A stretch of 64,000 nucleotides of DNA from an uncultured Pseudomonadales bacterium (GCA_964556485.1 CAZKVV010000003.1:56610-120609), one strand, 5' to 3'; shown: positions 1,376-46,656, counted from the first letter of the stretch. Translations and numbers: made by a program. Notes: generated from the sequence alone by a model not told the origin.

Positions 1376-1393
1376 AAATCCTTTACAAGAACA

Positions 1394-9091: not shown

Positions 9092-9112
9092 AAATTAGTA
9101 TATAATTGAGCC

Positions 9113-9927: not shown

Positions 9928-9935
9928 AGGCATTT

Positions 9936-10274: not shown

Positions 10275-10334
10275 CCAAAATTATTGAAATCGTAAAAATG
10301 CCGATGTGTAGTAGAATATATACAAGATAGACAC

Positions 10335-10363
10335 TTGACTCAAGGTCAAAGAAAACTAATAAT
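10335..10363 (+). promoter_or_regulatory. sigma-70-like promoter for pilin paralog G
   Basis: TTGACT at 10335-10340, 16-17 nt spacer, TAATAAT at 10357-10363. Followed by AAGGAG (10383-10388) and ATG at 10392. Confidence 0.45.
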
Positions 10364-10391
10364 AGTAAAAGTGAAAAAAAATAAGGAGACT

Positions 10392-10793
10392 ATGACAAAA
10401 TCACTTAAAAAATATGTAGCCTCTGGCTTAACTACAGGAGCAGCACTGCTCACTGCAGTTTCTCCAGTGTTTGCTCAAATTAATGCCGCAGAAATCGACC
10501 CTGGTAACGGTTTCGCAACAGACATCGGTACGCTCATTAATGCAGTACTATCATTCGTGATGGTTATCGCAGCTTTGCTCGTATTTATGTACCTCATTTG
10601 GGGTGGTATTGAATGGATTACTGCTGGTGGTGACAAAGGTAAAACTGAGTCTGCTCGTAACAAAATTACTGGCGCTATTCTCGGTCTTATCGTTCTCGCT
10701 GCTTCATATGCAATTCTTCTCATTGCTCTTAACTTCATCGGTTTCGCAAACCTTGGTGAAGCATTCAGCAACGTGAAGAGTATCAACGACTAA
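10392..10793 (+). CDS. VirB2/TrbC-like pilin family protein (paralog G, candidate major subunit)
   Basis: Start moved to the ATG at 10392 after a perfect AAGGAG RBS. The ORF-track start at 10335 is a TTG that coincides with the -35 hexamer. Signal peptide (VFA-QI), TM1, WITAGGDKGKTESARNK loop, TM2. Own promoter and terminator. Confidence 0.6.
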   Translation: MTKSLKKYVASGLTTGAALLTAVSPVFAQINAAEIDPGNGFATDIGTLINAVLSFVMVIAALLVFMYLIWGGIEWITAGGDKGKTESARNKITGAILGLIVLAASYAILLIALNFIGFANLGEAFSNVKSIND

Positions 10794-10823
10794 ATTGATA
10801 CAGTTATCTACAACGTAACTAAG

Positions 10824-10852
10824 AAACACCCCGTTAACAGCGGGGTGTTTTG
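10824..10852 (+). terminator. rho-independent terminator after pilin paralog G
   Basis: Stem AACACCCCG (10825-10833) pairs with CGGGGTGTT (10841-10849), 7-nt loop, then a T-run. Confidence 0.6.
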
Positions 10853-10859
10853 ATGTATT

Positions 10860-11444
10860 TTGATATATAATACCCATATGAGAACATTTCTGCATTCAAC
10901 CCTATTAGCAACACTTTTAGTATTTGCAGTAGTTTTATTAGCAGGCAGCATGTCAACCACTCAGATTTTCGCAGATACAGGTACAAATAACACTGCTCTT
11001 ATAAAAAATGGTGATGTTCTCTATCTTGGCAAGACGCTCACTGCTAAAAACTCTGCAACTCGCTCAGCAAGCACTACAAAATCTGCAACCAGTTCAGCGG
11101 GATTATCAATGACTCGATATACTATCTTCCCCAATGTTCAAATTGAAATTCCTCAAGGATTTGCCAAGGATATTGGCTCTATCATCAATGCGCTACTCAG
11201 CTTAGTGATGTTGTTTGGAGCTTTGTTGGTATTTCTGCAACTTATTTTAGGAGGACTGTTCTGGATAACTGCGGGCGGAGATAAAGGAAAAACTGAGGCA
11301 GCTCGCCAACGCATACTTTCTGCGCTACTTGGTCTAATCGTGCTTTCAGCCAGTTTTGCAGTTTTTTCACTTGCACTTAACTTCATAGGATTTGCTTCAA
11401 TCGAAGAAGTGTTTCAAAACACACGCACTATAACTGGTGAATAG
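10860..11444 (+). CDS. VirB2/TrbC-like pilin family protein with extended N-terminal region (paralog H)
   Basis: Signal peptide, S/T-rich spacer of about 80 aa, TM1, WITAGGDKGKTEAARQR loop, TM2. Confidence 0.55.
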   Translation: MIYNTHMRTFLHSTLLATLLVFAVVLLAGSMSTTQIFADTGTNNTALIKNGDVLYLGKTLTAKNSATRSASTTKSATSSAGLSMTRYTIFPNVQIEIPQGFAKDIGSIINALLSLVMLFGALLVFLQLILGGLFWITAGGDKGKTEAARQRILSALLGLIVLSASFAVFSLALNFIGFASIEEVFQNTRTITGE

Positions 11445-11464
11445 CTTCGTTTATAAACACCGAG

Positions 11465-11947
11465 ATGACCGTATTTAAAAACCTTGCTATACTAACTAGT
11501 ATGACAATCACCAGCCGATGGAAAAATAGTACAGCTAGCATTAAAAAAATCGCCACTTTGCTTTTTGTAGTGGCAGTTTCAACGATAGTGAGCGCTCAGC
11601 CTGTTCACGCTCAGACGAGAGAATGGGGCGGTGTTTGTTTAGGCCCAACCGAAGGATCAGCAGATGTGGCAACTATCCAAGGTCTTGAATGCTTAATCGC
11701 TAATGTGTTCATTGTTATTATCACTCTCGTTGGCCTTGCTGGCTTTGTGATGTTTTGTGCTGGCGGAATTATCTGGATGTTTTCAGGAAATGATAGCAAA
11801 AACACTGCTACAGCCAGACAAACTATGACCTATGCGGTTATTGGAATAGTGGTAACCCTCAGCGCATTTATTGTTCTTAACCTAATCTCTGCCTTCACCG
11901 GCATTAGCATCATTACTCAATTCAGAATTCCTACTTCAGAGATGTAG
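11465..11947 (+). CDS. VirB2/TrbC-like pilin family protein (paralog I)
   Basis: Signal peptide (VHA-QT), TM1, IWMFSGNDSKNTATARQ loop (compare the VirB2 WMFG segment), TM2. Confidence 0.5.
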   Translation: MTVFKNLAILTSMTITSRWKNSTASIKKIATLLFVVAVSTIVSAQPVHAQTREWGGVCLGPTEGSADVATIQGLECLIANVFIVIITLVGLAGFVMFCAGGIIWMFSGNDSKNTATARQTMTYAVIGIVVTLSAFIVLNLISAFTGISIITQFRIPTSEM

Positions 11948-17956: not shown

Positions 17957-18076
17957 ACCCCTTGGTTGTTTTCAATCCTCATTCTTATTGAAAACCCACT
18001 CGCGTTATCTCATAAGCGAAGTTCGCTCTTCAATACATTTTAAATGCAAATATCAAACTCGCTTACCACTATTAAG

Positions 18077-21000
18077 CTAGTGATCTTTTTCTGCAAGTTT
18101 TAACAACGTACCCTGTCGTGTCAACGGAAACTTCGTATGTTTATGTCTTTTCAACATCTCTAAGTAAATTTTATGCCTCTTTTCTGTTGGTAAAACTTGA
18201 CTTTTTAGCCATACCTCAAGACTTTTTCCCATGATTTGTTGCGGTGGATCTTCGTGATACACTTTTCGATACCAACTATCTACATATTCATACAGGTTTT
18301 TATTTCTACGTAGTTTTGGTGGTGCAAAGTCATGAGAGCGCTGAGCTTTCACACCTTTAATCCGCACCACATTTCCTTTTTCAATTTTTTCTATTGGGTT
18401 TAATGACAAATTATTAATAACCGCTGTCATTTCTGCTTTATAAGAACTAAGACCTCCGTTTCTCGAATCACTGAGGGCCTCAACCATTGCGTGATATAGT
18501 CTTTCTCTTTCTTTTGGATCATCATAATCGTCGAATGCCTGAGCTAATCGCAAACAGTAATGAGTTAATAATGGTTCCAAAAAGAGTGTTAGATGGTTCC
18601 CCGGGAACATTTTAACTTTTCCTGCGGTTTGTAGCCACTTACCCAACAACCCACCCTTACCGGCCTCTTCATAGTGCTCCATGATTTGCTCAAAGGTTAG
18701 GGGCGCTGGTATGTCCTTGTATGCCATCTCAAGCAATTCGCCAAATCCGTTTTCTTCTGCCAACTGATACAACTCAATTGAGCTAACAGATTCCCTGTTG
18801 CCATCAAATTTTTTGGCTAACTCCAAAGCTCGATTTGCTATGTATTCTGGAGACTGAGTGTAGGCCGTCCATCGCTCTTCTTCAATTTTTGTTTTCCTAT
18901 GATTGGTAATCTCAATCACATCGGCTGATGCCAAACCTTCTTTCGCAAGCGCCTCCTGGTAGCTCTGATTATCTTTTGGATCCAACAAATACCTTCTCCA
19001 AGCCCTCTCTTCTTCTTCTTTATTAATTGGGTCGTTAGCAGCAAGTCTTTCTCGCAAACCCTCTCCAACCATTTTTGTTCTATTGCTGTCAATCATGTGG
19101 TCAAAAAGCCAGAGTGTTTCATCTGGATGAAGTCTTAAAAATGCATCTGTAGCCAGACCAATTGACTCACAATATCCTGCTAGGGGAATTCCATGATTCT
19201 CTTTGTAACCTGATTTTCGCTTTGTTTTTTCATCTCTGTGCGCAGTAAAATTATCAATTTCAAAAAACATTCGTTCATGTCGCCACATTTGTTGTTGTAA
19301 TTTAATCATTGCCTCGTGATCTGGCCAAGTCCAGTCTTCACTTTTTGCTGTTTCTTTTGTAACACCTCTTGCAATCGCCTCTGGCTTGAGAGGTTCCTTC
19401 TTTCCATATTTAAATTTGCTTTTTCTCAAATCTTCATGATAAAAAAGTATCCACATCGACCAATCTTCGTCATTTCCACCATACCTAAACATACGGTGTA
19501 CTGCAGCTGCCAGCGGGTCGGAGAACATAATTCTATCTGGATCTTTAACAGCACCATTATGTCCGCGTGTTTGAGTTGTTTTTTGTAATTCTCTAAGTGA
19601 GAGCGTGAGGTAGTCGAAGTTTGTATAAATAAGTTGTGCAAACTCTAGAGCGCGAGGATCATACCGTTTGCCACCTTCTCCGAAAACCTTATTGATATAC
19701 CTATCTAAAACTGTACGGCCGGTTTCACCAATGAGGAGAAAAAAATTCATTTCACCATCAAACTCATATAGTGGAGTTTCTCCAGGCCTCAAGTCGTTAA
19801 CGAGAATTGAAAGTTCTTTTCCATCTCTAAGAACTACACACTGGTCTGGCCGGAGTGACGCAGTTTTGACTACATGTTCTAATATTTCTGATAATTGAGC
19901 ACCATATTCTGGGTGATAGGTGGTGGCAATCAGCAACTCTCTACGAGTAATAATTCTTTTCTGCATCTCAGCGTACAGTTGCGATCTATCAGTGGAAGCT
20001 TTCTCATTTTCATGCTGATTCTGATTATCCATTGTCTTCAGCTGGACTTTAACTTTATAAACAATTCTGTCGATTTCTGCTTTTGGATCACCCTCAATGT
20101 TTGTATTGGCTTTTTTCATGAATTCATTAATGACTTCACGTTCTCTATTTCCGCCTGTAGGACCTTTCCACTCTTTCCACAAGAATGGGTCCATACGAGA
20201 ATCACCAATTTCATCGGCTAGTTCAGCCAACGACATAGTGCTCACTTCTGGTTTAAGCATTGTTTCAAGAATTCCTCCAGCATCCAACAAGTCTCTAATT
20301 CTGGGAACAAGTTGCTCAATTGCTTGAACAACCGATGCCTTTTTTCCTGAAGGATTCAAAAGCCCTTTCACGGAAGCTTTAGCAACCTCATCTGTCAAAT
20401 CTATTTTGAGTTGCTTAAGTGCTTTTCTTGGTAAATCTTGTCTTTTTGCCGGTACTTGAGCAAGTAATCTTTTAATTTCAATGATAATTGGGTTGCTATT
20501 AAAGTCATTAAGCTCTTTTGCTGCAGCATCTTGTTCTATAAGCTCGTTTAACTCGGCTAGTTTTGCTGTCGCAGCATCGAACAAACTTTGTATGTAGTCG
20601 TTCTTAAGATCTCCAAAGTGGTTTGCTGGAGTAAGCCACTCGTTTGCTTTTTTTTCAGCTGTTGCATCAGCCACCTTTGACTGAAGTGCTGTAATTCTAT
20701 CTTGAGGAGTATCGCCAGGAGTATACGGAGGTGCCGGCGACACTCGAGCTGTTTGAGCAACTAAATCTTGCAACATTGGATATTGATCTAGCGTTGCTTT
20801 CCAAGTTTCAAACAATTTTGTATCAATTTCAACAATACGATCGTTTAATTTCTTGCGCATTTCCTTTGCTGGATTAATGTATAAAATGAGTATTTGCCTG
20901 TTTCTTCTGACACTAACCACAGCATCGTCAGAGCGAGCCAAGGCCTCTCTAATTTCTTCTGCATTATCTATGAGTTGATCTAAATCTGCTGTGAGTGAAC

Positions 21001-21877
21001 CACTATGACCCACCACTTGTCTAGGATCCCAATCTGGGTCTGCTAAATATTGATTAGCCTCGGCAACAAATAAGGCTAGTATTCTTAACTCGTCGGGGTG
21101 AGAGGTGTCAACACTTTGCCAGCTTATTTCTTGAGTTGGTGCCTTATCTTTAAGTTGACCTAAAATAGTTGAAATATTGTGTAATAATCCATTAATTTCT
21201 GCAAGCTGATTAGTAAACTCTAGGTCATAACTTAAATCAAGATCTGACATCTCCATGTAAAAACCAACCCTCAGTGCCTCGAGAGCTTCAGCTGCTGTAA
21301 AATCGGAATCTGCCACAGCACGCTGTACTTCTGTTAAAAATGGGCGGAGTTTTGCTAGTAGTGCCTTTTTTTCAGTAGTAAACGACTCCAATCTTTGTGC
21401 TGTATCTTCTTCAATGTCTTGAACAGGTGCTGCGTCTGCCTGATTTACTACTTCTTCAAGAGGTTGCTCGGGTGTTTGAGATTTAGCCATGCGTTCCTGT
21501 GCAACTCTTCGGGCTCTATCAAGCAAGCCAGCACCACCACTTTTGATTTTATTCAATCTATCATTAAGAGCAGCAAGCCTTCTTTGCGCAACAATTTGGT
21601 CAGATTCTTGTGCAGCCCGAACGATCTCTTCTCTGTTAGTAAGGTAATAATCAGCTTGAGTCCTAGATACATCGCTTAGTTTAAAACCTGATTTAAAAAT
21701 AAAACTTTCTAACGTATTAAGGTGTTCGTTTATTGCACCAACATCACGGTTGGCAATTGAAGCAGTGAGAGCAGCAATTAAGCGATTATACTCACCTTGA
21801 AGAGCAATTTTTTCTTGTTGTGGTCTTGATTCACTATCTGGTCTAGCCATGGGTAATATTATATCATTTTTCCTCAT
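18077..21877 (-). CDS. giant cytoplasmic protein (1266 aa), unknown function
   Basis: Long uninterrupted ORF with no signal peptide or TM segment and no recognisable motifs. Divergently transcribed from the downstream large genes. Confidence 0.55.
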   Translation of the reverse strand: MRKNDIILPMARPDSESRPQQEKIALQGEYNRLIAALTASIANRDVGAINEHLNTLESFIFKSGFKLSDVSRTQADYYLTNREEIVRAAQESDQIVAQRRLAALNDRLNKIKSGGAGLLDRARRVAQERMAKSQTPEQPLEEVVNQADAAPVQDIEEDTAQRLESFTTEKKALLAKLRPFLTEVQRAVADSDFTAAEALEALRVGFYMEMSDLDLSYDLEFTNQLAEINGLLHNISTILGQLKDKAPTQEISWQSVDTSHPDELRILALFVAEANQYLADPDWDPRQVVGHSGSLTADLDQLIDNAEEIREALARSDDAVVSVRRNRQILILYINPAKEMRKKLNDRIVEIDTKLFETWKATLDQYPMLQDLVAQTARVSPAPPYTPGDTPQDRITALQSKVADATAEKKANEWLTPANHFGDLKNDYIQSLFDAATAKLAELNELIEQDAAAKELNDFNSNPIIIEIKRLLAQVPAKRQDLPRKALKQLKIDLTDEVAKASVKGLLNPSGKKASVVQAIEQLVPRIRDLLDAGGILETMLKPEVSTMSLAELADEIGDSRMDPFLWKEWKGPTGGNREREVINEFMKKANTNIEGDPKAEIDRIVYKVKVQLKTMDNQNQHENEKASTDRSQLYAEMQKRIITRRELLIATTYHPEYGAQLSEILEHVVKTASLRPDQCVVLRDGKELSILVNDLRPGETPLYEFDGEMNFFLLIGETGRTVLDRYINKVFGEGGKRYDPRALEFAQLIYTNFDYLTLSLRELQKTTQTRGHNGAVKDPDRIMFSDPLAAAVHRMFRYGGNDEDWSMWILFYHEDLRKSKFKYGKKEPLKPEAIARGVTKETAKSEDWTWPDHEAMIKLQQQMWRHERMFFEIDNFTAHRDEKTKRKSGYKENHGIPLAGYCESIGLATDAFLRLHPDETLWLFDHMIDSNRTKMVGEGLRERLAANDPINKEEEERAWRRYLLDPKDNQSYQEALAKEGLASADVIEITNHRKTKIEEERWTAYTQSPEYIANRALELAKKFDGNRESVSSIELYQLAEENGFGELLEMAYKDIPAPLTFEQIMEHYEEAGKGGLLGKWLQTAGKVKMFPGNHLTLFLEPLLTHYCLRLAQAFDDYDDPKERERLYHAMVEALSDSRNGGLSSYKAEMTAVINNLSLNPIEKIEKGNVVRIKGVKAQRSHDFAPPKLRRNKNLYEYVDSWYRKVYHEDPPQQIMGKSLEVWLKSQVLPTEKRHKIYLEMLKRHKHTKFPLTRQGTLLKLAEKDH

Positions 21878-22147
21878 AAAACTGTCAAAGAAGATTTACG
21901 ACAACTAATGCCCACCCACTGTCTGGGTACTATCGTACTTGCATTACCTTATTTTTTTCGCTACAGTGGTGAAACTTTACGGAATCTGGTGAAAATCCAG
22001 AGCTGTGCCGCAACGGTGACTGTTACAAACAGAAGTCCGATCTGTAAAGAAACTTTGTACAACCAAAGTATACCGACGAGCATCGGGCTTGCGCCCATCG
22101 TACTACTTTCCACACCAGCAAGCCTTGTTGCTCCTCTCAGGAGGAGT

Positions 22148-23986
22148 ATGTTGAGCAGACAAGAAAAAAACCCACCTACATCCCAATTTGAACAATGGGA
22201 CGCAACTGATTACATTGCACTAATGGCCAATCCTGCTTTTCGCACGGAGGAAGCATTACGAACTCTTTTTGCAGCCAATTTTTTTGCTTTTGCAGCCGAG
22301 TATACTCGAGGTGAACTCATTTCTAACTTTACAATGAATGTTGATCCTCAAAAAGGCCTGTTGGGAATGTCCTCTTCATACAACGAAGGTATGGAAGGCA
22401 TGGGTGAGCACTTTGAAACTAAAATTGCAGGACAAAAAAAGCAAACTGCTCGAGCAGAGGCGGAAACCAACAATATCGACAAACTAAACGAGTGGTCAAA
22501 AACGGCTCCGGTTGATTCCTTTTTTGTCTGGAATAGTCCGCCAGGAAAGATATCTGAAGGATATGCAGGACTCAATTCGCATTCATTCATTTTTATCTAT
22601 CACAAAACAACTGCAAACACAGTGGTATTGCATCAACTCAGAACCTGGATGTCACTCTCACAACATGCTGAGTTTCAAAATCAGATCTCTTCTCATACCC
22701 AAAACATCTCATCCGCTGTAAATGCAGTAGAACATTCCTATCGCATCATTAATAACATTTCAGTCTTTGAACCCAAAGATGTGGGATGCACTTCCGCAGC
22801 AGAAGTAGTTGCAAAACTAACTGAAAGTGCCTACCAAACAGAGCAAACCTGGAAGACGAAACCACAAGAAATGCCCAAAGTTCCCGATGCTGAATATGCC
22901 CAACTTAGAGACTTTTTACTAAGCCTGTATGTGCGTGTGGTTGTACCCGCTCTTCTTACTGAAGTGCCCGAAACCCAAGATGCAAATAGTACGGAGTGGC
23001 TGGCGTTTATCTCCTCACCAGCATATAAAATGCTCATTCAAAAATTAGATGTTGCTTTCGGCATATTAGCCTATCAACCGCTTACTAAATGGGTGGCAGA
23101 AAAAGACGAAAATAAACAACAATCACTTCTGGGGCAGTTGTTAAGAAAAAAAGATACGTCAATCACCACTCTTTCGTTTGAAGAGATTGAAGAAAAACTA
23201 CTTTCACTCTTTCATTTACAACTACAAAAATCTGCAGGTACACCAATTACTCGAAAACAAATCAAAGAATACAATGCCATCGCTTCATCGCTCATGGCTA
23301 CAACATCAAGAGGATTGAGTTTGGGTCAGTGTGGGCTTGGAACCTTTATACCTACTAGAATGTTCAAAACATTTGGACTACAAGACATAGCTGGCTCAAC
23401 TCTTAACCCAGGAATGCTTCTAGGTTTGCCCTCTCACGAAAAAGCTGCAGCCTTTTCATTCTTAACAACCAAAAAATATCTTCCTCTCCACCTTCCCAAT
23501 GGTGAAACTTGGTATGTTTTAGCCAAACACCATCAACTCTATGCCAATTATTTTGCTCAAAATCCAAATAGTTTCACAGCTGATGGACTGCCCATCGGCC
23601 CTTGCGGCTGGTTACTGCGCGGCGACCCTCGTGGTATGGATGAGCTCGTTTTAACCGGTGGAGAATTTAGTCAATTTGAACTACTCAAAGCGTCGTTACT
23701 CGCCGATTTATTAAGCAATCCTCACGACACACTTTCATTACTCGAATCATCCCTCATGCCTCATATTCACTCCGCTGTACAAAAAGAGAGGCTCACTCAA
23801 GTACTACTCACTTTACATGACGCACTTAAAACAACGGTTTCACTTCAGGAGCTGCTTTTTTCTGATTTTTTTAACAAAACAGCTTTTCCTTTAATAGCTA
23901 GTCTTTCAAAAAAAGTTGATGTTCGCCAATTTGTGACTAATCCAGAGCATACTGCCGCACAAGTTGTTGCTGCTTTTGAGGTATAA
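22148..23986 (+). CDS. hypothetical protein (about 612 aa)
   Basis: Start moved to the ATG at 22148 preceded by AGGAGGAG. The upstream 240 nt of the ORF-track ORF look non-coding (odd composition, structured RNA motifs). Confidence 0.5.
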   Translation: MLSRQEKNPPTSQFEQWDATDYIALMANPAFRTEEALRTLFAANFFAFAAEYTRGELISNFTMNVDPQKGLLGMSSSYNEGMEGMGEHFETKIAGQKKQTARAEAETNNIDKLNEWSKTAPVDSFFVWNSPPGKISEGYAGLNSHSFIFIYHKTTANTVVLHQLRTWMSLSQHAEFQNQISSHTQNISSAVNAVEHSYRIINNISVFEPKDVGCTSAAEVVAKLTESAYQTEQTWKTKPQEMPKVPDAEYAQLRDFLLSLYVRVVVPALLTEVPETQDANSTEWLAFISSPAYKMLIQKLDVAFGILAYQPLTKWVAEKDENKQQSLLGQLLRKKDTSITTLSFEEIEEKLLSLFHLQLQKSAGTPITRKQIKEYNAIASSLMATTSRGLSLGQCGLGTFIPTRMFKTFGLQDIAGSTLNPGMLLGLPSHEKAAAFSFLTTKKYLPLHLPNGETWYVLAKHHQLYANYFAQNPNSFTADGLPIGPCGWLLRGDPRGMDELVLTGGEFSQFELLKASLLADLLSNPHDTLSLLESSLMPHIHSAVQKERLTQVLLTLHDALKTTVSLQELLFSDFFNKTAFPLIASLSKKVDVRQFVTNPEHTAAQVVAAFEV

Positions 23987-23994
23987 TTACCCAT

Positions 23995-26900
23995 ATGAGT
24001 GCAGCTGGATTGCCGCCAGAAGATCTTCGTTTCGAGCTTGTCAAACGACTTGATCCTTCTTTGTCCCTCAAAAACAACCGTTCCCAAGTAGAAATAATTT
24101 TCAACCAGCTCAAGTCAGCATTTAAAAGAGGCGAATTAGTTGGGGATTCATTTATTACCGTACAGCTGGCAGATGCTCGAACACGACTATTATCAGTTGT
24201 CTCCAACACCCGTGAGGGTTTGAGCGAAAGTGAGCAAGAAAAATACTTATTTTACTCAGACTTTGCCGCACTACTTCTAGACATCGCTAAACTCTTCAAG
24301 GCAAGTAGTAAAAAACAAGAATTCACCCAATATGCTACAACCGAAAAACAATTAAAAGAATGGGCTCACGAAGCAGGTGCGCCATATGAATCCATTTCTG
24401 AATTTGCTGTGTGGCAACATCGGTATGAACTACAAACACTTCTAGATAAGTTAGCAGCAAGTTTTAAAGATTTTTCAGTTGATGAAGAAGTCGAAACAGA
24501 AGTTGAGGATGAGGAAACAGAAGCTGAAAAAGACGTCGCACAAGAAGATGATGAAAAAAAGCGCAAGCTAATTGCTGAAGCGTTAGAAAAGCAACAAGAA
24601 GATGTGGCAGCGGCTGCAGCGGCCCTATCTAGTGCGGTGGTGCCCACCACTACAGATGGTGGCGCTGCTCTCGCCAGTGCTTCAGCAACTCCCCCTCCAG
24701 TTTCTATAGACCCTAGCAAACCACTTGGCTCGCAACTAACTGCCAAACAACTTAGTCAATACAATGCCAATATTGGTTGGTTAACCAGTTTTACACTACT
24801 CCAAATTGCAGATGAGATGGGTTTGGAGATTTCCACACTTCCACCAGATTTGCGTGGCGAATTAACCGGAATGGTTGCGACCTACCTCACCACTGAGGGC
24901 GACCTCGCCGAGCTGCTAAAAGGTAGTCCTACCGCTCGTCTCAGAGCTATTCGTGGCTTTCAAAAATACTTACAACAAAATAATTTCTATGACAAACATC
25001 AACTCTATCCTTCAGCCACATCTACGCTTGAAGAAAGAACAGACAAGCGGATAAACGAAATTTTAGGCGATACCAACAGCATAATTGACACCAGCATTCG
25101 CAAAACAGTCGAGGATATTGTCCTAGTTCATGGTCAAAAAAGCCAGAAGCTCATTGACTCTTTCGACAATGCAAAAATTGAACTCATTTTTGGACTAGAT
25201 CGATACAAAATTACCATCGAGCAAGCAGATAAACTCAAGGGTGTTCTTAAATCATATGCCGAAGTGAGATTGGATGAACTCGTTTTGCACACTGGTGATG
25301 AAGACACGCTTGAAGGACTGGATCCCGACCAAAATCCAGAATTAAAAGATGTAACAACACTTGTTGATCAAATTAAAGCAGTAAGAACAACTATTCAGCA
25401 AAACACAACCAGTGCAGACAGTGAAAAAGCGGAACTTGGCGCTGGAGCACTCACTTCTAAAGGAGGAGTTTCTAAAAAAATCAAGCTGGCCGTTGAACAA
25501 AATCAGAAAATTTTTGGTCCATATTGGAGTAGTTTGTCTCCCGAGCAGCAGGCTGTTGTGCTCTCAACACTCGATCCGTCATACAAAAATCTGCTTGAAG
25601 TTAGACAGCATCCAGTAGAAGGCTATCCACTACCTCTAACTATTGCTGAATTTAATCCTGATATTCTTCGTCGCTTTGAACTTGAGCAAAGCATGTTGAA
25701 AAACGGTAAAATGAGCCCTGAGGAGTATCAACTCGCTCTGGAAATTGCACAATACAACGATCTAGTTGAGCAACAAGAGGCCGTTGCTGCGCAACTACGT
25801 CAAGAATATTTAGCTCTCACTTCAGCAGAACAACAAGCAGCAATTGCAACCTCACTAGCCCTCGAAAATCTGGCACAAATGCAAGAACAGGCTAGTTTCA
25901 TGGAAATGTGTCAACAAGATGAAGCATTATGTGCTGCGGGTGGTGGTGAATCAGTCGACTCAGAAGCTATCAACGAACCATCTAATGTTGGCGATGGTAG
26001 TCCTGTTGACAACGGTAGAAGCCTGATAAAAAGAAGGCGTGGTAAAAAAGGAGAAGGTGTTTCTCCTAAAGAGAAAAGGATTAAAGCACTTAAAAATGCT
26101 GCTAGCAAAAAAGCTCATGCCGCTGTTAATAGCGGTCTTACAAAAGCGGCTGGAGCAATTCCTGTTGTTGGAACTGCGGCAGCAGCTGTACTCACTGCGC
26201 TCAGCGCTGTAATTGGCAAAGAAAATGCTAACAAGTTGGTAGCTGGAGTAGGTGTTGCCGCAGGCTTAGTTTTTGCTAAAACACTATATGCTTTCACCAC
26301 TATTGGCGGAGCTCTTGGAGGAGCTATTGGCGGAATTGTAGGAAGCATACTTGCCCCAGGAGCAGGAACGCTTATTGGCGCTGTTCTTGGCGCTAATATT
26401 GGCGCCGCCATTGCTCCTGCCTCTTGGATGGGTGTTTTTAGCGGTGGTGGTGGTGGACTATTTAGTTCAACTGTATTTCCAACAGTTGGCTCGGTTGCTT
26501 CAACTGCCACGAACGCAGCGGGTACTGTTGTCTCGGGTGCGTCTAGTGCCGCTAGTACAGTAGCGCAAGCTACACAAGCAACTACTACAGCAGGGTCTGC
26601 CACAACAGCCGCAACCATAAAGGCGACAGGACTCAACGTGATTACTGCAACAACCAGCCTCACTTTCTTGGCGCCTGTGGGAGGAGTAGTTCTAGCAGGA
26701 TCCTTCACGCTCGTTGTTCTTATTGTTATTTTTGCCGCGTTTCTTGTACCAATGCCTTTTTCTTCTTACTCTGGTGGCGCAAATCAAACCGAATCACTCT
26801 ACGCGACAGTAGAAAAAACCTCAAACCCATCATCGCTCAGTAACAATACCCCAACACAAGTTACCTACACTATTTCGATTGCTCCTCGAACTGGGTATCA

Positions 26901-27735
26901 AATTGAAATTAAGGGTGTAACCGACAGTTTTTCAAATGTTGGCGGTACTGGATCTGTCCCCACTTCACCACTAGTTCGTGATAATTTTCCAACAGGAGTT
27001 TTGTCACAGCCAACCACTACTACCTACACCATTGAGCTTTCTGGAGAAGACATACTCGTTAGCAATACCGTCACCTTTGTCATCGACGTTTTCAACCCAA
27101 GTGGAGAGTTAATTAAACAAGGTGAAAGTATTAGCTCAATTGCTTCAGTGCGCATTGGAAATCCACCCATTGGTTGTTTTGAGTTTGCTCCGGCTGGCGA
27201 AAGAATTACCTACACAACTAACGGTCAATCTTACACCAATATTTCTGAAACCATTACTCAAACAGATCAAAACTTGTTTTTGCAATCTTTTACTCGCAGA
27301 GTAGCAACCAATGCAATGTATATATCATTACTCTGTTCTGACGGCCCCATTCTCATTCATAAGTGGCAAGCAAGTCCATCCGGATACTATGCCTGGGTTT
27401 TTGCTCCAAATAAAATTGGGTTTTATGCACCCGCTTGGAGTTCTGGGCGTTGGTTTGAGTACACACTCATACACGAGACGGGTCATATTATTGATGCGCG
27501 CAATGGAGGACTTCGTACGCAATTCTTACAAGTAAAAACAGATGCATCCTGCTATTCATACCCAGCTACCTGCAGTGAGGGTGAATCATTTGCTGAAGGT
27601 ATGGTCCTCTATGTCTTATATCAAACACTCAGTTTTAACTTTAGCAATTGGACTGGCCCGTTCCCTTTTAAATCAGATTACCCCGTTGAATACAACTGGT
27701 ATAAACAAAATATTTTTGGTGGACAGGAGTTTTAA
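23995..27735 (+). CDS. giant membrane protein (1246 aa) with C-terminal HExxH zinc-metallopeptidase-like motif
   Basis: Acidic coiled N-terminal half. Gly/Ala-rich TM cluster (residues about 720-900). C-terminal TLIHETGHIID followed by a downstream acidic SEGESFAEG (zincin-like). Confidence 0.55.
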   Translation: MSAAGLPPEDLRFELVKRLDPSLSLKNNRSQVEIIFNQLKSAFKRGELVGDSFITVQLADARTRLLSVVSNTREGLSESEQEKYLFYSDFAALLLDIAKLFKASSKKQEFTQYATTEKQLKEWAHEAGAPYESISEFAVWQHRYELQTLLDKLAASFKDFSVDEEVETEVEDEETEAEKDVAQEDDEKKRKLIAEALEKQQEDVAAAAAALSSAVVPTTTDGGAALASASATPPPVSIDPSKPLGSQLTAKQLSQYNANIGWLTSFTLLQIADEMGLEISTLPPDLRGELTGMVATYLTTEGDLAELLKGSPTARLRAIRGFQKYLQQNNFYDKHQLYPSATSTLEERTDKRINEILGDTNSIIDTSIRKTVEDIVLVHGQKSQKLIDSFDNAKIELIFGLDRYKITIEQADKLKGVLKSYAEVRLDELVLHTGDEDTLEGLDPDQNPELKDVTTLVDQIKAVRTTIQQNTTSADSEKAELGAGALTSKGGVSKKIKLAVEQNQKIFGPYWSSLSPEQQAVVLSTLDPSYKNLLEVRQHPVEGYPLPLTIAEFNPDILRRFELEQSMLKNGKMSPEEYQLALEIAQYNDLVEQQEAVAAQLRQEYLALTSAEQQAAIATSLALENLAQMQEQASFMEMCQQDEALCAAGGGESVDSEAINEPSNVGDGSPVDNGRSLIKRRRGKKGEGVSPKEKRIKALKNAASKKAHAAVNSGLTKAAGAIPVVGTAAAAVLTALSAVIGKENANKLVAGVGVAAGLVFAKTLYAFTTIGGALGGAIGGIVGSILAPGAGTLIGAVLGANIGAAIAPASWMGVFSGGGGGLFSSTVFPTVGSVASTATNAAGTVVSGASSAASTVAQATQATTTAGSATTAATIKATGLNVITATTSLTFLAPVGGVVLAGSFTLVVLIVIFAAFLVPMPFSSYSGGANQTESLYATVEKTSNPSSLSNNTPTQVTYTISIAPRTGYQIEIKGVTDSFSNVGGTGSVPTSPLVRDNFPTGVLSQPTTTTYTIELSGEDILVSNTVTFVIDVFNPSGELIKQGESISSIASVRIGNPPIGCFEFAPAGERITYTTNGQSYTNISETITQTDQNLFLQSFTRRVATNAMYISLLCSDGPILIHKWQASPSGYYAWVFAPNKIGFYAPAWSSGRWFEYTLIHETGHIIDARNGGLRTQFLQVKTDASCYSYPATCSEGESFAEGMVLYVLYQTLSFNFSNWTGPFPFKSDYPVEYNWYKQNIFGGQEF

Positions 27736-27737
27736 CT

Positions 27738-28358
27738 ATGGAAAGAGGTCGTAAACGAGTTCACGAGTTACATCAAGAAGTCGCACCCAAACAAGCTGAT
27801 TTTGACAGAAAACCAAAAAAGAACTGGGTATTGCCTGCCATTGCGATTTCAGCAGTGCTGTTGTTGATCATCACCTTCATCAGACTATTCACTCCGGAAA
27901 CACAGCCACCACTACAAGAAAACAGTTGGAATGGCGTTACGCCCGGATATTCCTTCACACAAAAAGTTTCTGAGGAACTCGGCGAACCTATTTCGGTAAA
28001 CATGGTTGGAAATGCAAAAGAAGTTAGTTATAAATCTGTATTCCCTTCCAAACCAAATACTATTCTTGTTTCCGATAATGGTATAGTCGAGTTTATTAAG
28101 GAACATGTCACCTACGACTCCAAACATACTGTTGAAAACTACCTCCCTAAACTCGGTCAGCCTGATTTTGTGTTATTCGCCCCAGAAATTAGCATTGGAG
28201 TGCAAGCGCATGTATTTTTATCAAAAGGCGTAGTACTCATTGCTCACAGCAAAGATAATAGTGTCGAACAAAAATGGTATTTTGCGCCAACTAATAAAGA
28301 TTCGTTTATGTTTACTTGGGGAAAAGAACTTTCAGAATCATTTAGTAATCCAGAATAG
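27738..28358 (+). CDS. bitopic membrane protein, VirB8-like candidate
   Basis: 206 aa. Short basic N-terminus, one TM (WVLPAIAISAVLLLIITFIRLF), extracytoplasmic domain of about 150 aa. Assignment is by architecture and locus context only. Confidence 0.35.
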   Translation: MERGRKRVHELHQEVAPKQADFDRKPKKNWVLPAIAISAVLLLIITFIRLFTPETQPPLQENSWNGVTPGYSFTQKVSEELGEPISVNMVGNAKEVSYKSVFPSKPNTILVSDNGIVEFIKEHVTYDSKHTVENYLPKLGQPDFVLFAPEISIGVQAHVFLSKGVVLIAHSKDNSVEQKWYFAPTNKDSFMFTWGKELSESFSNPE

Positions 28359-28423
28359 CCACATCTAGCATTATATGTGTTGATCCTGCTATTATTAATA
28401 TCTAGTACTCTAAGCGCTGCCCT

Positions 28424-29632
28424 ATGCGAGAACATCCAATTCCACAAGACATTACGGGATACCGCTTCCACATTATTGGGAGTATGACTCTCAAGCAATT
28501 TGTGGAGATTTCAATTGGTGTAGTCATTGGCGGCATCATTTATTCAACCAACCTTCCCGCAGTAATCAAGTTTCCGCTCATTCTATTTTCCGTTGCACTC
28601 GGAGGTATGGCTGCTTTTCTACCAATTGAAGACAGGCCGCTTGATCACTGGATCATCACTTTTTTTAGGGTGATGTACAACCCAACTCAATTTTTTTGGA
28701 GACGTGAGCCCAACATTCCCGACTGTTTTAACTTTACTCCCAACGCTCAAACCATGATTCATGAACCAGAAATTGATCTAGGCCCTGCAAAAAAACAACG
28801 TATCCGTGAGTATATGACCTCCGTACCAAATACAGTCGATCCTTTTGCACTCGATGCTTCCGAAAACTCTCGTATTTCATCAATCATGAGTAGTTTTTCA
28901 AGCACTGAGGTGACCTCAGTACAAGTAACACCAACAAAACTTCCTCAACATATATCCGAGAAACCACAACTTGGCGTACGCGTGAGAAGTCTTCGCGCAA
29001 AAGCAAAAGAGAATGTGGTCTTTATAGCTGAAGATGTAGAAATGACAACTACACACGTGCCTACTGGACCACGAATTATTGAGGAAACAGTTAATGGCGT
29101 TGAGACTAATCTTGCCACTCAATATCTCGAAAGAGAACAACTTACTAAGCAATCTCAAAACGTGTCGGAAGTTGCTGGGAATATTGCAATTCCTGCTCTA
29201 GAAGAAATTCATGTTGTTCCCCAAGCAGAAGATGGGACGGTCGCGCCTGCTATCGACACAACCACACAACAAATGATTTTTGATAATTCTCAAGGAATGG
29301 CAATTAGTGAGGGAATAGCCTCAGAAGAAGCGGGTTTTAACACTTCACTACCATTTCCAGAACCTCCAAGTGAACCAAATAAATTAGTGGGCATGGTACT
29401 CAGTCCAACTAATGAATTAATCGTCAATGCTATTGTTGAAATTCAAACACCAACTGGTGCCGTTGCAAGGGCTGTAAAAACCAACACACTTGGTCAATTT
29501 TTCATCACCACTCCTCTCGAGGATGGAGACTATAATTTAGTTGTTGAAAAAGATGGGTACCAGTTTAGCAACCAACATATACAAATAACCGGAGAAATTG
29601 TTCAACCAATAGAAATAAGAAGTCTTGGTTGA
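28424..29632 (+). CDS. two-TM protein (VirB3/PrgI-like candidate) fused to a CarboxypepD_reg-like beta-sandwich domain
   Basis: N-terminal 2-TM hairpin (FVEISIGVVIGGIIY ... PLILFSVALGGMAAFL). C-terminal GMVLSPTNELIVNAIVEIQTPTGAV...GDYNLVVEKDGYQ. Confidence 0.4.
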   Translation: MREHPIPQDITGYRFHIIGSMTLKQFVEISIGVVIGGIIYSTNLPAVIKFPLILFSVALGGMAAFLPIEDRPLDHWIITFFRVMYNPTQFFWRREPNIPDCFNFTPNAQTMIHEPEIDLGPAKKQRIREYMTSVPNTVDPFALDASENSRISSIMSSFSSTEVTSVQVTPTKLPQHISEKPQLGVRVRSLRAKAKENVVFIAEDVEMTTTHVPTGPRIIEETVNGVETNLATQYLEREQLTKQSQNVSEVAGNIAIPALEEIHVVPQAEDGTVAPAIDTTTQQMIFDNSQGMAISEGIASEEAGFNTSLPFPEPPSEPNKLVGMVLSPTNELIVNAIVEIQTPTGAVARAVKTNTLGQFFITTPLEDGDYNLVVEKDGYQFSNQHIQITGEIVQPIEIRSLG

Positions 29633-29665
29633 GACAGTAATAGAAACCAGCTAAGATACTACATA

Positions 29666-31051
29666 ATGAATGAAACCGTTATTCACTCCACTACTCAAAA
29701 ATTTCTCGATATTTTTGATATTACCAATAATTTAGTGATTCTCAAAGACGGTACTACTTCATTAATTATTCAAGTTGATGCTATGAACTTTGGCTTATTA
29801 GCCGAAGAAGAACAAGATAGCATCATGTATGCCTATGCCGGGTTGCTAAACTCACTTAACTACCCGATCCAAATCATCGTACATTCTCAAACCAAAGATG
29901 TAACTGGTTATCTGAGTATCCTAAAGGATCAAGAAGACACTGCCACCAGTAGAGAAAAACAGCAAAGAATTCGCCGCTATCGTGAATTTGTGAGTAATCT
30001 TATTAAAGAACGCAATGTTTTGGATAAAAAATTTTACGTTACCATTTCTGCAACACCTCTCGAGCTTGGTATGATTGCTCCACAGAGTTTTATCCCGGGA
30101 AAAAGTGAAATTAAAATCACTGGTGAAGAGCGCACGGCTGTTATTGAAAAAGCACGTTATATTCTCGAACCAAAACGAGATCATTTACTCGCACAATTTT
30201 CTCGAATTGGACTGTTTTCTCGACAGTTAACCACTCAAGAAATGATTCAGTATTTTTATATTAGTTACAACCCCGAGGCTGCAGAAGGGCAGCAAATCGC
30301 CGATACTAATAATTACACAACACCCATGGTTACGGCAGGTGTTGAAGGAATGTCCTCTATGAACGCAACACAAATTCCAACCCCTATATCACAGGTTGCA
30401 GCAACTGCACCAGCTGAAACTCAAGCAGTAGTACAACCGACAACTCCTGTTGTCGCACCAACGCCAGCAATAGAGCAAGTGGCCGTAGCAGCGCCACCAG
30501 TCCAAGAAGCTCAGCCAGTTTATTCTGCAGCACCTGTTGCCCCAGTACCACTTCCTGTTGAAGCACAGCTCGAGCAGGTTCCTCAGCAACTGTTAGAACA
30601 ACAACCAGAACCTGTCATTCAAATTGAAAGAGCTCCTGTAGATGTGGTGGTTCCTCAATCGCAATCGGGTGCGTACACGCCAACAATGATGACTACCCCC
30701 ATTCCTCTTGAAACACCCACTCCAACTTCGGTGTCACCAGAACCTATTGCCGCTATTCACCATACTGAAACAGCAGCCTCAACAGAGCCAACTGTAGATA
30801 TGAGTGTTGCTCTAAGCACCACTCCGACTGAATTGCCAAAACCAACGCTACCAGCGGGAATGACTACGACTCAACCAATTAGCGCTAGTGCTGTTACTCC
30901 GCAAGCGCCTGTAGAAGTTCAAACACAGACACCTGTTCCTCAAGAAGCTACTGCGCAAGATGCCATTAATACAACGTTGGGACAACTTGGGGGAATATCG
31001 GTGACGCCAGATAATTCAAACGCAACACTTCCTCCACTTCCTGAAATTTAG
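29666..31051 (+). CDS. VirB4/TrbE N-terminal-domain-like protein with long Pro/Thr/Ala/Val-rich low-complexity tail
   Basis: N-terminal LVILKDGTTSLIIQVDAMNFGLLAEEEQDSIMYAYAGLLNSLN parallels the extreme N-terminus of TrbE/VirB4 (LNKDGSF...RGPDL...E...LNNALRRL). Followed by about 230 aa of PTAV-rich sequence. Confidence 0.45.
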   Translation: MNETVIHSTTQKFLDIFDITNNLVILKDGTTSLIIQVDAMNFGLLAEEEQDSIMYAYAGLLNSLNYPIQIIVHSQTKDVTGYLSILKDQEDTATSREKQQRIRRYREFVSNLIKERNVLDKKFYVTISATPLELGMIAPQSFIPGKSEIKITGEERTAVIEKARYILEPKRDHLLAQFSRIGLFSRQLTTQEMIQYFYISYNPEAAEGQQIADTNNYTTPMVTAGVEGMSSMNATQIPTPISQVAATAPAETQAVVQPTTPVVAPTPAIEQVAVAAPPVQEAQPVYSAAPVAPVPLPVEAQLEQVPQQLLEQQPEPVIQIERAPVDVVVPQSQSGAYTPTMMTTPIPLETPTPTSVSPEPIAAIHHTETAASTEPTVDMSVALSTTPTELPKPTLPAGMTTTQPISASAVTPQAPVEVQTQTPVPQEATAQDAINTTLGQLGGISVTPDNSNATLPPLPEI

Positions 31052-31065
31052 TAGAATGAAAAGTA

Positions 31066-33072
31066 ATGCCTAGCTTGCTTAGTTCACTACCTCTTCCTTT
31101 CGGTAAAAAGAAAACCGATACTATTGTGGTAACTCCAGAGCAGCAAAAAGAACAAGTTGAGTTGGAAAAACTCAAGCAATTTTCGCGTGGCTTGGTTACA
31201 ATTCAAGACATCATTGCTCCGGAAGCCATTGAGGTCGACTTCACCTTTCAAAAAATCAACGACACCTATTCAAGAACGCTCTTTGTTTCCGGCTATCCTC
31301 GCTCGGTGCCAGCCAACTGGTTGTCCCCGCTCATCAACTTCCCACATCAACTAAGCGTGTCAATGTTTGTCTATCCTGTTGATTCTGGTGAAATTCTCGA
31401 CAACCTCAAACGTAAAATCACTGAAATGGAGGCTGAAATTCAGTCTGACCTCCGGGCTGGAAAAATCAGTAATATTAATACTGAAGTGAAGCTCGAGGAT
31501 GCTCGGTTTATTCGAGAAGAACTCGCTAAAGGCTCGGAGCGCTTCTTCCAATTTGGTCTCTACGTTACGATTACAGCAAATGACAAAGATGAACTCGATC
31601 GCGTTACCAAGAGTATTCAATCAACACTTGGAGCCATGTTGATTGTTTCTAAAAAAGCCACTCTCCAGATGGACGATGGCTTCAAAACAACCCTTCCTAT
31701 GGGCGTAGACAAGTTGATGGTGACGCGAAACATGGACACCACTTCTTTAGCAACCACGTTCCCATTCACTTCCAGTGAACTCACTATGGAAACGGGTATT
31801 ATGTACGGCATTAACGAACATAATGATTCTTTAGTTATCTTCGACCGTTTTAAAATGGAAAATGCCAATATGGTGATCTTTGCTAAGTCTGGTGCGGGTA
31901 AATCCTACACGGTGAAGTTAGAAATCTTGCGCCAACTAATGTTTGGGGCTGAAGTCATCGTGCTCGATCCAGAACATGAGTACGAAGATCTATCTCAGGC
32001 GGTTAGTGGCGAGTATATAAATTTCACCTTCAGTTCTTCAGCAAAAATTAACCCTTTCGATCTCTCCAACCTCTATGAAGAAGGCGAAAACGAGTTGGGT
32101 CAAAAAATTATTTCAATTCATGGACTGCTTAAAGTGATGTTGGGCGAAATGACCGCACAACAAGATGCAATGCTCGACCGAGCTCTAGTTGCAGCGTACA
32201 AGGCTAAAGGCATCACTCCCGATCCAGCCACCCAAACCAACGAGCCGCCACTCATGGAGGATGTGTATAAAGCCTTAATTGGTATGGAAGATCAAGAATC
32301 AAATGACATCGCTGCCCGGTTAGAAAAATATATTACTGGTTCATTCAGGGGTATTTTTGACCAAAAATCAAATGTAAGCTTTAATAATCAATTGACTGTT
32401 TTTTCTGTGAAAGAAATGGAAGAGGCAATGCGACCAATTGCTATGTATATGATTCTAGATTTCATCTGGACCCGTGTTAAAAAAGACCTCAAAAAGCGTT
32501 TGCTCATTGTTGATGAGGCTTGGTACTTTATGAAGCATCCTGATTCAGCTTCATTTATTCACTCAATGGTTAAACGTGCACGTAAATACTATTTAGGAAT
32601 TACCACCATCACTCAAGATGTAGAAGACTTTTTGCATAATGATTACGGCAGAGCAATTGTTACAAACGCCTCGATCCAATTTTTGATGAAGCAATCTACT
32701 GCTTCAGTGCCAATTCTGGCAGAAACATTCTATCTTTCTCAAGGTGAGCGCCAGCTTCTCGTCACAGCAGATGTGGGTGAGGGCATTTTCTTTGCTGGCC
32801 AAAATCATGTAGCTCTTCGTGTTGTTGCCTCTGACGAAGAACATCAACTTATTACTACCAATCCTGAAGAAGTGTTTAAGCGTCAACAATTAATCAAAGC
32901 TCAAGCTGCCGCAGAGGCTGCACCTCAACAATCAACCCGCCCACAACCTTCAGCTGCCACCAGAGCACCCCAAACACAGCAGGTGCTGCAACAAAAAATG
33001 CAGCCAACTACTGACACCAGTTTGCCAAAACAACTCAATACCATTAATGACTACATTCCGCCTGAAAACTAA
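31066..33072 (+). CDS. virB4: T4SS ATPase, VirB4/TrbE/TraE family (lacks the usual N-terminal about 170 aa, which appear to be on the preceding ORF)
   Basis: CagE_TrbE_VirB-like block (YSRTLFVSGYPRSVPANWLSPL). Walker A FAKSGAGKSYTVK. Walker B LLIVDEAWYFM. ITTITQD sensor. Confidence 0.75.
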   Translation: MPSLLSSLPLPFGKKKTDTIVVTPEQQKEQVELEKLKQFSRGLVTIQDIIAPEAIEVDFTFQKINDTYSRTLFVSGYPRSVPANWLSPLINFPHQLSVSMFVYPVDSGEILDNLKRKITEMEAEIQSDLRAGKISNINTEVKLEDARFIREELAKGSERFFQFGLYVTITANDKDELDRVTKSIQSTLGAMLIVSKKATLQMDDGFKTTLPMGVDKLMVTRNMDTTSLATTFPFTSSELTMETGIMYGINEHNDSLVIFDRFKMENANMVIFAKSGAGKSYTVKLEILRQLMFGAEVIVLDPEHEYEDLSQAVSGEYINFTFSSSAKINPFDLSNLYEEGENELGQKIISIHGLLKVMLGEMTAQQDAMLDRALVAAYKAKGITPDPATQTNEPPLMEDVYKALIGMEDQESNDIAARLEKYITGSFRGIFDQKSNVSFNNQLTVFSVKEMEEAMRPIAMYMILDFIWTRVKKDLKKRLLIVDEAWYFMKHPDSASFIHSMVKRARKYYLGITTITQDVEDFLHNDYGRAIVTNASIQFLMKQSTASVPILAETFYLSQGERQLLVTADVGEGIFFAGQNHVALRVVASDEEHQLITTNPEEVFKRQQLIKAQAAAEAAPQQSTRPQPSAATRAPQTQQVLQQKMQPTTDTSLPKQLNTINDYIPPEN

Positions 33073-46604: not shown

Positions 46605-46656
46605 TGTATTAATGGAAGTATTATTACAACTCAGTTTTTGTTGAAATAAAGAAAAA

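Follow-up and report, generated by a model that had tools for sequence, protein, structure and literature searches.

Why should a sequence that resembles a cobalamin riboswitch stand in front of genes without any evident connection to vitamin B12? The question is raised by a 64,000-nucleotide (nt) stretch of DNA, referred to here as the window, which was deposited for an uncultured Pseudomonadales bacterium (GCA_964556485.1 CAZKVV010000003.1:56610-120609). An initial annotation, made from the sequence alone, had proposed that the leader upstream of a start codon at position 22148 contains a variant cobalamin riboswitch together with a hairpin sequestering the Shine-Dalgarno (SD) sequence. This proposal is supported by a covariance-model match and by orthologous leaders with compensatory base changes, and the element is a conserved cobalamin-type riboswitch variant, without being a member of a known family by curated criteria. 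We consider it likely, judging from its sequence and predicted structure, that it represents a class-II-like cobalamin (corrinoid)-sensing riboswitch which heads a six-gene Patescibacterial type IV secretion system (T4SS) operon and acts by a ligand-dependent OFF mechanism. The features of the locus are listed in Table 1.

Detection of a cobalamin-type aptamer

The core sequence quoted in the initial annotation was indeed found at positions 21981-22023, and the corresponding consensus pattern matched only one site of 40 nt in the 64-kb window (21980-22019, plus strand), with 2 mismatches; it was not matched in any of 100 dinucleotide-preserving shuffles. A permissive Rfam scan aligned the region from 21975 to 22049 to positions 22-99 of the 149 positions of RF01482 (AdoCbl riboswitch aptamer) with a score of 45.2 bits, compared to curated gathering scores of 50 for RF01482 and 31.5 for RF00174. 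Although below the gathering score, the match is significant, with an E-value of 3.5e-7 in a search of 501 nt and of 4.5e-5 if the whole window is searched on both strands with all 4227 families. The matched part of the model comprises the inner closing helix, P4, P5, P6, and the B12 box, and RF01482 was the best-scoring family for the window as well as for seven homologous loci. Two of the matches among the homologs covered the full length of the model and aligned the motif CCGACGAGCAUCGG to its P13/L13 hairpin.

The B12 box, which had been reported as missing downstream of the core, is present 3' of P6 as AAGUCCGAUCUGUAAAG and was aligned to the RF01482 consensus AAGUCAGGUCUUUugcC; the boxes of the homologs read AAG(U/C)CCGGUC(A/G)GU(A/G)AGG. 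The CCCACUG-like stretch at 21914-21920, which had been considered in its place, lies upstream of the conserved promoter described below, is not conserved, and falls outside the RNA. In addition to the B12 box, the initial annotation had missed the P13/L13 hairpin, the anti-sequestor pairing by which aptamer and hairpin would be connected, the promoter at P3, and the role of the hairpin as a terminator in most homologs. The four-way junction of P3 to P6 and the conserved core nucleotides in J3/4, L4, and the B12 box, by which Rfam clan CL00101 is recognised, are both present: J3/4 (GGAA), L4 (GGUGAAAAUCC), the B12 box, and the junction nucleotides agree with the cobalamin consensus at each position.

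Conservation of the leader in homologous loci

Among 5.8 billion clustered sequences, the 612-aa product of the first gene behind the leader had only 11 close relatives (45-69% identity), and a profile search retrieved no further close homologs. Scans of genomes and metagenomes revealed only five loci, and no viral contig carried the RNA core or a relative of the 612-aa protein. The close relatives bearing names come from Patescibacteria, represented by Woesebacteria, Pacebacteria, entries of the "Patescibacteria group", and, although entered under Pseudomonadales, the isolate HK-STAS-PATE-16. Two metagenome-assembled genomes with the Patescibacterial operon (L008 and L010; isolates SRP192515_co1_162 and HK-STAS-PATE-16) have been deposited as "Pseudomonadales bacterium", which is probably a taxonomic mislabel in both cases. 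From 23 fetched loci, we obtained 10 distinct full leaders and one leader truncated at its 5' end.

The layout of the leader is identical in every homolog: a promoter-like sequence is followed by the aptamer with a variable P6 hairpin, the B12 box, a short linker, the motif CCGACGAGCAUCGG, a variable stretch, and the arrangement CCC-n-UGCUCCUC-loop-GAGGAG. The invariant motif CCGACGAGCAUCGG as well as CCGACGAGCATCGG occurred exactly once, and within the leader, in all 17 loci fetched first, and GGAAUCUGGUGAAAAUCCAGAGCUGUGCCGCAACGGUAA within the aptamer is almost invariant. The aptamer of about 75 nt is nearly unchanged across the leaders, although the proteins encoded downstream share only 47-69% identity and the flanking intergenic DNA is unalignable.

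We scored 24 base pairs of P3, P4, P5, the base of P6, P13, and a three-pair kissing loop on a MAFFT alignment of 10 sequences (A3). All 24 pairs were 100% paired, with compensatory changes at three of them (two in P3 and one in P4), and none of 500 shuffles attained the observed paired percentage or covariation score. If the partner columns were slid, pairing fell to 27-42%. RNAalifold independently recovered P3, P4, and P13. The distal stems of P6 vary in sequence (CUGU/ACAG, GUUUUC/GAAAAC, GCAU/GUGC, GUGC/GCAC, and others), while the hairpin is formed in all leaders and always sits between conserved internal-loop strands, the whole P6 segment measuring 26-48 nt. The linker between aptamer and P13 comprises 7-11 nt in most homologs and carries a larger insert in locus L017, whereas an extra hairpin occupies it only in the window and in its closest relative, locus L001, whose stem has a different sequence (UCUUGAU/AUCAAGA).

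A decaying relic or a chance resemblance without any regulatory role would explain the scores under the gathering cut-offs and the lack of B12 genes nearby, and a chance match had also been contemplated in the initial annotation. Such an origin is hardly compatible with the shuffling results and the whole-window E-value given above, nor with about 75 nt staying nearly invariant in front of proteins of about 50% identity between unalignable flanks, nor with the compensatory changes that maintain P3, P4, P6, and the hairpin at the SD sequence. Both a significant covariance-model match and a conserved structure in the orthologous leaders were found, and conservation effectively refutes this explanation, to which we assign only a marginal likelihood.

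Predicted promoter, P13, and the proposed kissing loop

Upstream of P3, an alignment of 10 leaders (A4) contains only two invariant blocks, TTG(CA) and TAnAnT, with a fixed spacer length between them and with P3 beginning 7 nt past the second block. We regard them as the -35 and -10 elements of a predicted promoter. A consensus scan had missed it because TTGCAT agrees with TTGACA at just three of six positions. The transcript should therefore start 0-3 nt before P3. An RNA starting at P3 would have no P1 and no J1/3, and both flanks of P3 are indeed purine-rich and unable to pair.

Downstream of the linker, the short hairpin P13 exposes a loop (L13) that is complementary to L5 of the aptamer. 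The consensus of L5 is UCCCG, and its partners are L13 loops of the CGGGA type, with a bulge in some cases (PMC10327014). In the leaders described here, L5 reads UGCCG and L13 reads CG-A-GCA, so that the single deviation of L5 from UCCCG is mirrored in L13. This complementarity is present in all leaders, its columns being invariant within the leader family, and beyond the three pairs given in Table 1 the interaction may be extended by U22006-A22082 and G22010-C22077. From the matched change in both loops we infer that the kissing loop is preserved.

The same deviation of L5 from UCCCG might instead indicate a descendant of a cobalamin aptamer whose ligand is now a different one, be it a particular precursor or analogue of corrinoids or a metabolite of another kind, the odd gene context then reflecting the changed ligand. 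Besides the atypical genes and the scores under the Rfam cut-offs, the absence of P1 and J1/3 would fit such a change, as class IIa riboswitches use these elements to contact the binding site (PMC7367189). Yet J3/4, the T-loop of L4, the B12 box, and the junction nucleotides all follow the cobalamin consensus, and the change in L5 is compensated in L13, which argues for a normal kissing loop that has been kept rather than a remodelled pocket. We know of no cobalamin-fold riboswitch with a non-corrinoid ligand and regard a changed ligand as unlikely, a corrinoid remaining the favoured candidate.

Expression platform

The initial annotation had correctly recognised the hairpin CTCCTC-TCAG-GAGGAG, which was confirmed at 22131-22146 and directly abuts the ATG at 22148. 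Across the 11 leaders, 97.4% of the alignment cells of this sequestor were paired, compared to 45-55% in slid controls, and one compensatory pair was observed (U-A to C-G in L013 and L014). Folding of the predicted transcript (21972-22160) likewise reproduced the sequestor in the minimum free energy (MFE) structure, together with P3, P4, P6, the linker hairpin, and a long-range helix (z = -1.95).

This long-range helix between GGGCUUGC and GCAAGCCU places L13 and the 3' strand of P13 beside the anti-SD region. It is predicted in every leader from differing sequences, for example GGCUUGC/GCAAGCC in the window, GGACGC/GCGUCC in L006, and GCGUAUU/AAUACGC in L014. The duplex energy of the cognate strands averaged -11.1 kcal/mol versus -8.27 ± 0.60 kcal/mol for permuted partners, and none of 100000 permutations was as low, a statistic that is inflated because the sequences are related. 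Ranked against about 1200-3900 background windows, the true 3' partner was among the best 1% in 9 of 10 loci. Adjacent to the helix, GAGCA and UGCUC are invariant and pairable in 11 of 11 leaders, and in all of these the larger segment GAGCA(U)-n-GGG, made up of L13 and the 3' strand of P13, is able to pair with CCC-n-(A)UGCUC. The CUCCUC arm opens with the final bases of UGCUC, and this pairing would compete with the sequestor as well as with P13. Constrained folds with either P13 and the hairpin (OFF) or the extended helix (ON) differed by no more than 2.3 kcal/mol in all 11 leaders, with 5-6 of the 6 SD nucleotides paired in the OFF fold and a remnant of 1-4 nt in the ON fold. Two other pairings were dropped as candidates: an alternation of the P3 3' strand (GUGAGG) with the anti-SD sequence CUCCUCA, whose complementarity is broken by GUAAAG in the window and GUAAGG in L001, and a pairing of GACGAG with the U-tract, which RNAfold frequently predicted and which we judged to be a weak artefact of A-U and G-U pairs.

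These observations suggest the following mechanism. With a corrinoid bound to the four-way junction of P3 to P6, L5 would kiss L13 and lock P13, leaving UGCUCCUC free to pair with GAGGAG, and the ribosome-binding site would be hidden. In most homologs, a terminator would also form, as a U-tract follows the hairpin. Without ligand, GAGCAUCGGG, consisting of L13 and the 3' strand of P13, would extend the long-range helix by pairing with CCC..UGCUC, so that the hairpin would lose its 5' arm and the SD sequence would become exposed. The same logic, in which L5-L13 kissing stabilises P13 and lets a terminator form, operates in the metE riboswitch of Priestia megaterium, and we therefore propose an OFF switch, which is very probably the direction of regulation.

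A U-run (7 U in 8 nt; UUUUUUG) that includes the UUG start codon comes after the hairpin in 9 of 11 leaders, and in these leaders the hairpin looks like an intrinsic terminator in addition to an SD sequestor. The window and L001 carry UAUGUU in its place. Since the U-tract is absent there, control in the window would probably be translational only. The segment GAGGAGUUUUUUG with the U-tract and UUG start of L004-L017 is thus replaced by GAGGAGUAUGUUG in the window and L001, alongside the gained linker hairpin. It looks as if, within one clade, a dual control of transcription and translation had been reduced to a purely translational one.

A terminator-like hairpin with a U-tract behind most of the leaders, together with RF01482 being the best-matching family, would also be expected if the main product were a B12-dependent, short trans-acting small RNA of about 170-200 nt, as in EutX/Rli55, set free when transcription terminates at the leader hairpin, with control of the operon being secondary. 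We consider this very unlikely. The hairpin contains the SD sequence of the downstream gene, whose start codon lies in or just past the U-tract; the U-tract has disappeared from the window and L001, where everything else is retained; and no conserved, additional single-stranded motif for binding targets or proteins was seen in the leaders.

The first gene of the operon

In the public annotation, the first gene encodes a protein of 692 aa (P0001) starting with the ATG at 21908, which reads through the whole riboswitch (21908-22147). The leader would then represent the 80 N-terminal residues of the protein, and the frame is in fact open from 21908. Such an extension is missing from 8 of 10 homologs, which align only from the ATG at 22148 onwards, and two other proteins with long N-terminal calls share only the translated B12 box. 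The conserved nucleotides of the leader fall in all three frames, with stop codons in other loci, while SD sequence and start codon are conserved at 22140-22153. A coding leader is therefore almost inconceivable to us, and the element is better described as an untranslated riboswitch in front of a 612-aa protein, with UUG 22151 as the equivalent of the UUG start of the homologs. Gene callers also over-extended P0004 and P0010, and for other homologs they placed the start codon, AUG or UUG, within the anti-SD sequence (CCCAUGCUCC).

Beyond its close relatives, the 612-aa protein belongs to a wider family of 89 representatives at E <= 1e-3, all of about 550-750 aa (exhaustive HMMER search), whose invariant residues include two cysteines. 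It shows a weak PAS-like subdomain. A Pfam scan of 10 of its distant relatives did not reveal a domain in any of them, and Pfam, NCBIfam, and PDB sequence searches with this protein and the 1246-aa protein encoded next to it returned nothing.

The operon and its neighbourhood

The leader is followed by six genes (22148-33072) with intergenic gaps of 2-65 nt, and terminator-like sites inside the operon are not in excess (10 found versus 13.2 expected). The non-B12 nature of the first two genes, as stated in the initial annotation, was borne out, whereas their description as merely hypothetical was not, since a Patescibacterial T4SS operon begins with them. The operon encodes a VirB4-like ATPase together with PrgI/VirB3-like and TrsD-like proteins, and dnaA begins at 33190, 117 nt downstream, followed by dnaN, yidC, and jag. 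The same gene order was found in L001, L018, and L022, continuing with dnaA-dnaN-rpmH-rnpA-yidD-yidC in the latter two. A megablast search of positions 18000-32000 against plasmids gave no match, and the region is chromosomal, adjoining dnaA. This corresponds to a Patescibacterial MPF-FATA-like T4SS, and the regulated operon is the chromosomal, origin-proximal system described in PMC12102498, with which it shares the PrgI/VirB3-like, TrsD/TraC-like, and VirB4 components by dnaA and VirB2-like pilins nearby.

Table 1. Features of the leader and the operon, with positions counted from the first nucleotide of the window.
Feature	Position	Strand	Remarks
Predicted promoter	21939-21967	+	-35 TTGCAT 21939-44, 17-nt spacer, -10 TACAGT 21962-67
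Aptamer, four-way junction	21975-22049	+	RF01482 alignment, 45.2 bits
P3	21975-80 / 22044-49	+	closing helix of the aptamer
J3/4 GGAA	21981-84	+	
P4	21985-89 / 21997-22001	+	T-loop-like L4 UGAAAAU at 21990-96
P5	22004-06 / 22010-12	+	L5 GCC 22007-09
P6	22014-16 / 22037-39	+	distal stem 22020-23 / 22029-32
B12 box	22033-22049	+	P6 3' side, J6/3, P3 3' strand
Extra linker hairpin ACUUUG-UACAAC-CAAAGU	22052-22069	+	between aptamer and P13
P13 CCGA / UCGG	22073-76 / 22083-86	+	L13 CGAGCA 22077-82
Proposed kissing loop L5-L13	G22007-C22081, C22008-G22080, C22009-G22078		A22079 bulged
Predicted anti-sequestor/antiterminator GAGCA / UGCUC	22078-82 / 22129-33	+	excludes P13/L13 and sequestor positions 22130-33
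Predicted long-range helix	22085-92 / 22118-25	+	
Sequestor hairpin	22130-22147	+	CUCCUC 22131-36, loop UCAG, GAGGAG 22141-46, extended by G22130/U22147
SD GGAGGAG	22140-46	+	
First regulated gene, 612 aa	22148-23986	+	start AUG 22148 or adjacent UUG 22151; orphan cytoplasmic protein
Remaining operon	23995-33072	+	products of 1246, 206, 402, 461, and 668 aa; Pfam and NCBIfam scans
1246-aa membrane protein			transmembrane region 718-927, HETGH at 1160; orphan
402-aa PrgI/VirB3-like protein			CarboxypepD_reg domain; Pfam PrgI
461-aa TraC/TrsD-like protein			Pfam TraC-like, NCBIfam TrsD
668-aa VirB4-like ATPase			Pfam P-loop_TraG / AAA_10 / CagE_TrbE_VirB

Further T4SS components are located elsewhere in the window, namely four tandem open reading frames (ORFs) for VirB2/T4SS_pilin-like proteins (8552-11947) and a gene for a TrwB/TraG-type coupling-protein-like product on the minus strand (58301-60850). 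Because these are outside of the riboswitch operon, the riboswitch would control only a part of the system.

Apart from T4SS genes, the window contains a mevalonate-pathway cluster on the minus strand (389-5953) with genes for two GHMP kinases, a thiolase, an HMG-CoA synthase-like protein, and HMG-CoA reductase. At 50767-50821 on the minus strand, the type III hammerhead ribozyme model RF00008 was matched over its full length with a sub-threshold score (31.2 bits versus 48.5; whole-window E-value 0.01). Its core CUGAUGA...GAAA is intact, with stems I (CACGAC/GUCGUG), II (GUC/GAC), and III (CCU/AGG) and a UC cleavage site. The site lies just 3' of a solute-binding-protein gene, on the opposite strand, and its MFE structure shows the three stems with a z-score of only -0.45. 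A further sub-threshold match to MicX (46643-46799, plus strand; 33 bits versus 75) consists mostly of a GC-rich hairpin AAAAGGGCGAAC...GUUCGCCC behind the ORF at 45780-46604 and is probably just a terminator.

Discussion

Several observations weigh against assigning the leader to the cobalamin riboswitches. At the Rfam gathering threshold, neither the window nor 13 homologous loci gave a match, and the homologous leaders all gave sub-threshold matches to the cobalamin clan (32-47.7 bits for RF01482 or 24.3-28.9 bits for RF00174), none reaching the gathering score; the missing P1 and the short P13 account for this shortfall. P13 has just 4 bp, and the closing helix comprises just 6 bp instead of the 12 of the model, because the RNA would start at P3. 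RNAalifold preferred a different P5 of 5 bp, and the unconstrained MFE structure of the window retains the sequestor. The columns of P5, the P6 base, P13, the kissing loop, and GAGCA:UGCUC are invariant, so that covariation speaks neither for nor against these pairings. The sample is limited to 10-11 distinct leaders that are mutually related. Finally, no B12-related gene was present in the operon or across the 64-kb window, unlike in the usual regulon of cobalamin riboswitches, which consists of genes for B12 synthesis, transport, or use (PMC9600662); the operon codes for T4SS-type and orphan proteins instead.

Following the class definitions in PMC7367189, class Cbl-I riboswitches carry a P2 arm that separates P1 from P3, and their P6 is prolonged by P7-P11, whereas class Cbl-II riboswitches have no P2 arm, a simple P6 stem-loop, and a P1 joined to P3 via a short J1/3. 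The leader described here does not belong to class Cbl-I, because it has neither a P2 arm nor a P7-P11 extension, appears to start at P3, and forms P6 as a single hairpin. It resembles class II in lacking the P2 arm and having a simple P6, although P1 and J1/3 are absent. The architecture of RF01482, without P2 arm and with a short P6 hairpin, corresponds to class Cbl-II as well. The leader shares with this family (clan CL00101) the four-way junction of P3 to P6, J3/4 GGAA, L4 GGUGAAAAUCC, the B12 box, a short linker, and a P13 hairpin with a CGAG loop. It differs in P13, which has about 12 bp in the model, in the shorter closing helix mentioned above, in L5/L13 (CCCG / CG-A-GG in the model, UGCCG / CG-A-GCA here), and in the extra linker hairpin of the window. 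RF01482 presumably derives from eut-locus riboswitches of Firmicutes.

A close mechanistic parallel is the metE corrinoid riboswitch of P. megaterium, a repressing, transcriptional switch for which the logic of P13, antiterminator, and terminator has been proven by mutagenesis (PMC10327014). It agrees with the mechanism proposed here in its regulatory logic and in an L5-L13 kissing loop stabilising P13. Its aptamer, however, is complete with P1 and P2, its L5 conforms to the UCCCG consensus and forms five uninterrupted kissing pairs, and its target is a methionine synthase that works independently of B12. In the leader described here, by comparison, a part of L13 would join the antiterminator, and the hairpin would double as SD sequestor. 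The translational Cbl-IIa riboswitch env8HyCbl (PDB 4FRN; PMC7367189, PMC10327014) has a compact class-II aptamer, a bulged kissing loop, and control of access to the ribosome-binding site, as we propose for our element. Its J1/3 T-loop contacts the ligand site, whereas J1/3 is missing here, and the ribosome-binding site is located in a separate downstream hairpin rather than in P13. A precedent for a B12 riboswitch before a gene without evident role in B12 metabolism is the ppe2 riboswitch of Mycobacterium tuberculosis, which differs in organism, aptamer type, and target (PMC11260477).

The position of such a riboswitch before a Patescibacterial T4SS operon is unprecedented; in our literature search, we found no paper joining cobalamin riboswitches with Patescibacteria, or functionally with T4SS. 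A literature search for B12-dependent enzymes in Patescibacteria yielded nothing usable. Patescibacteria, also known as candidate phyla radiation (CPR), are ultrasmall symbionts which cannot synthesise the majority of cofactors and spend their lives attached to bacterial hosts. Since the riboswitch heads the T4SS operon, high intracellular B12 would switch off the synthesis of the apparatus, which suggests that the supply of B12 may control the host-interaction machinery. More tentatively, and with considerable doubt, the level of host-derived corrinoids could gate an essential T4SS-type apparatus, where either the apparatus or the two clade-specific lead proteins would acquire cofactors or nutrients from the host and be shut off by feedback when B12 is plentiful. 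The T4SS of Saccharibacteria is essential in the one species tested, while its role has been called completely unknown (PMC11665869). For the origin-proximal systems, gene dosage is so far the only mechanism of expression to have been proposed, and a riboswitch is not mentioned (PMC12102498).

A compact cobalamin aptamer without P1 goes unnoticed at the standard Rfam thresholds, and the number of such elements in CPR genomes is therefore probably underestimated. A ligand-sensing RNA at this position would represent the first specific regulatory input for the Patescibacterial T4SS operon, and as B12 riboswitches normally mark genes for the supply or use of B12, it would offer a concrete, testable lead to the function of this T4SS.
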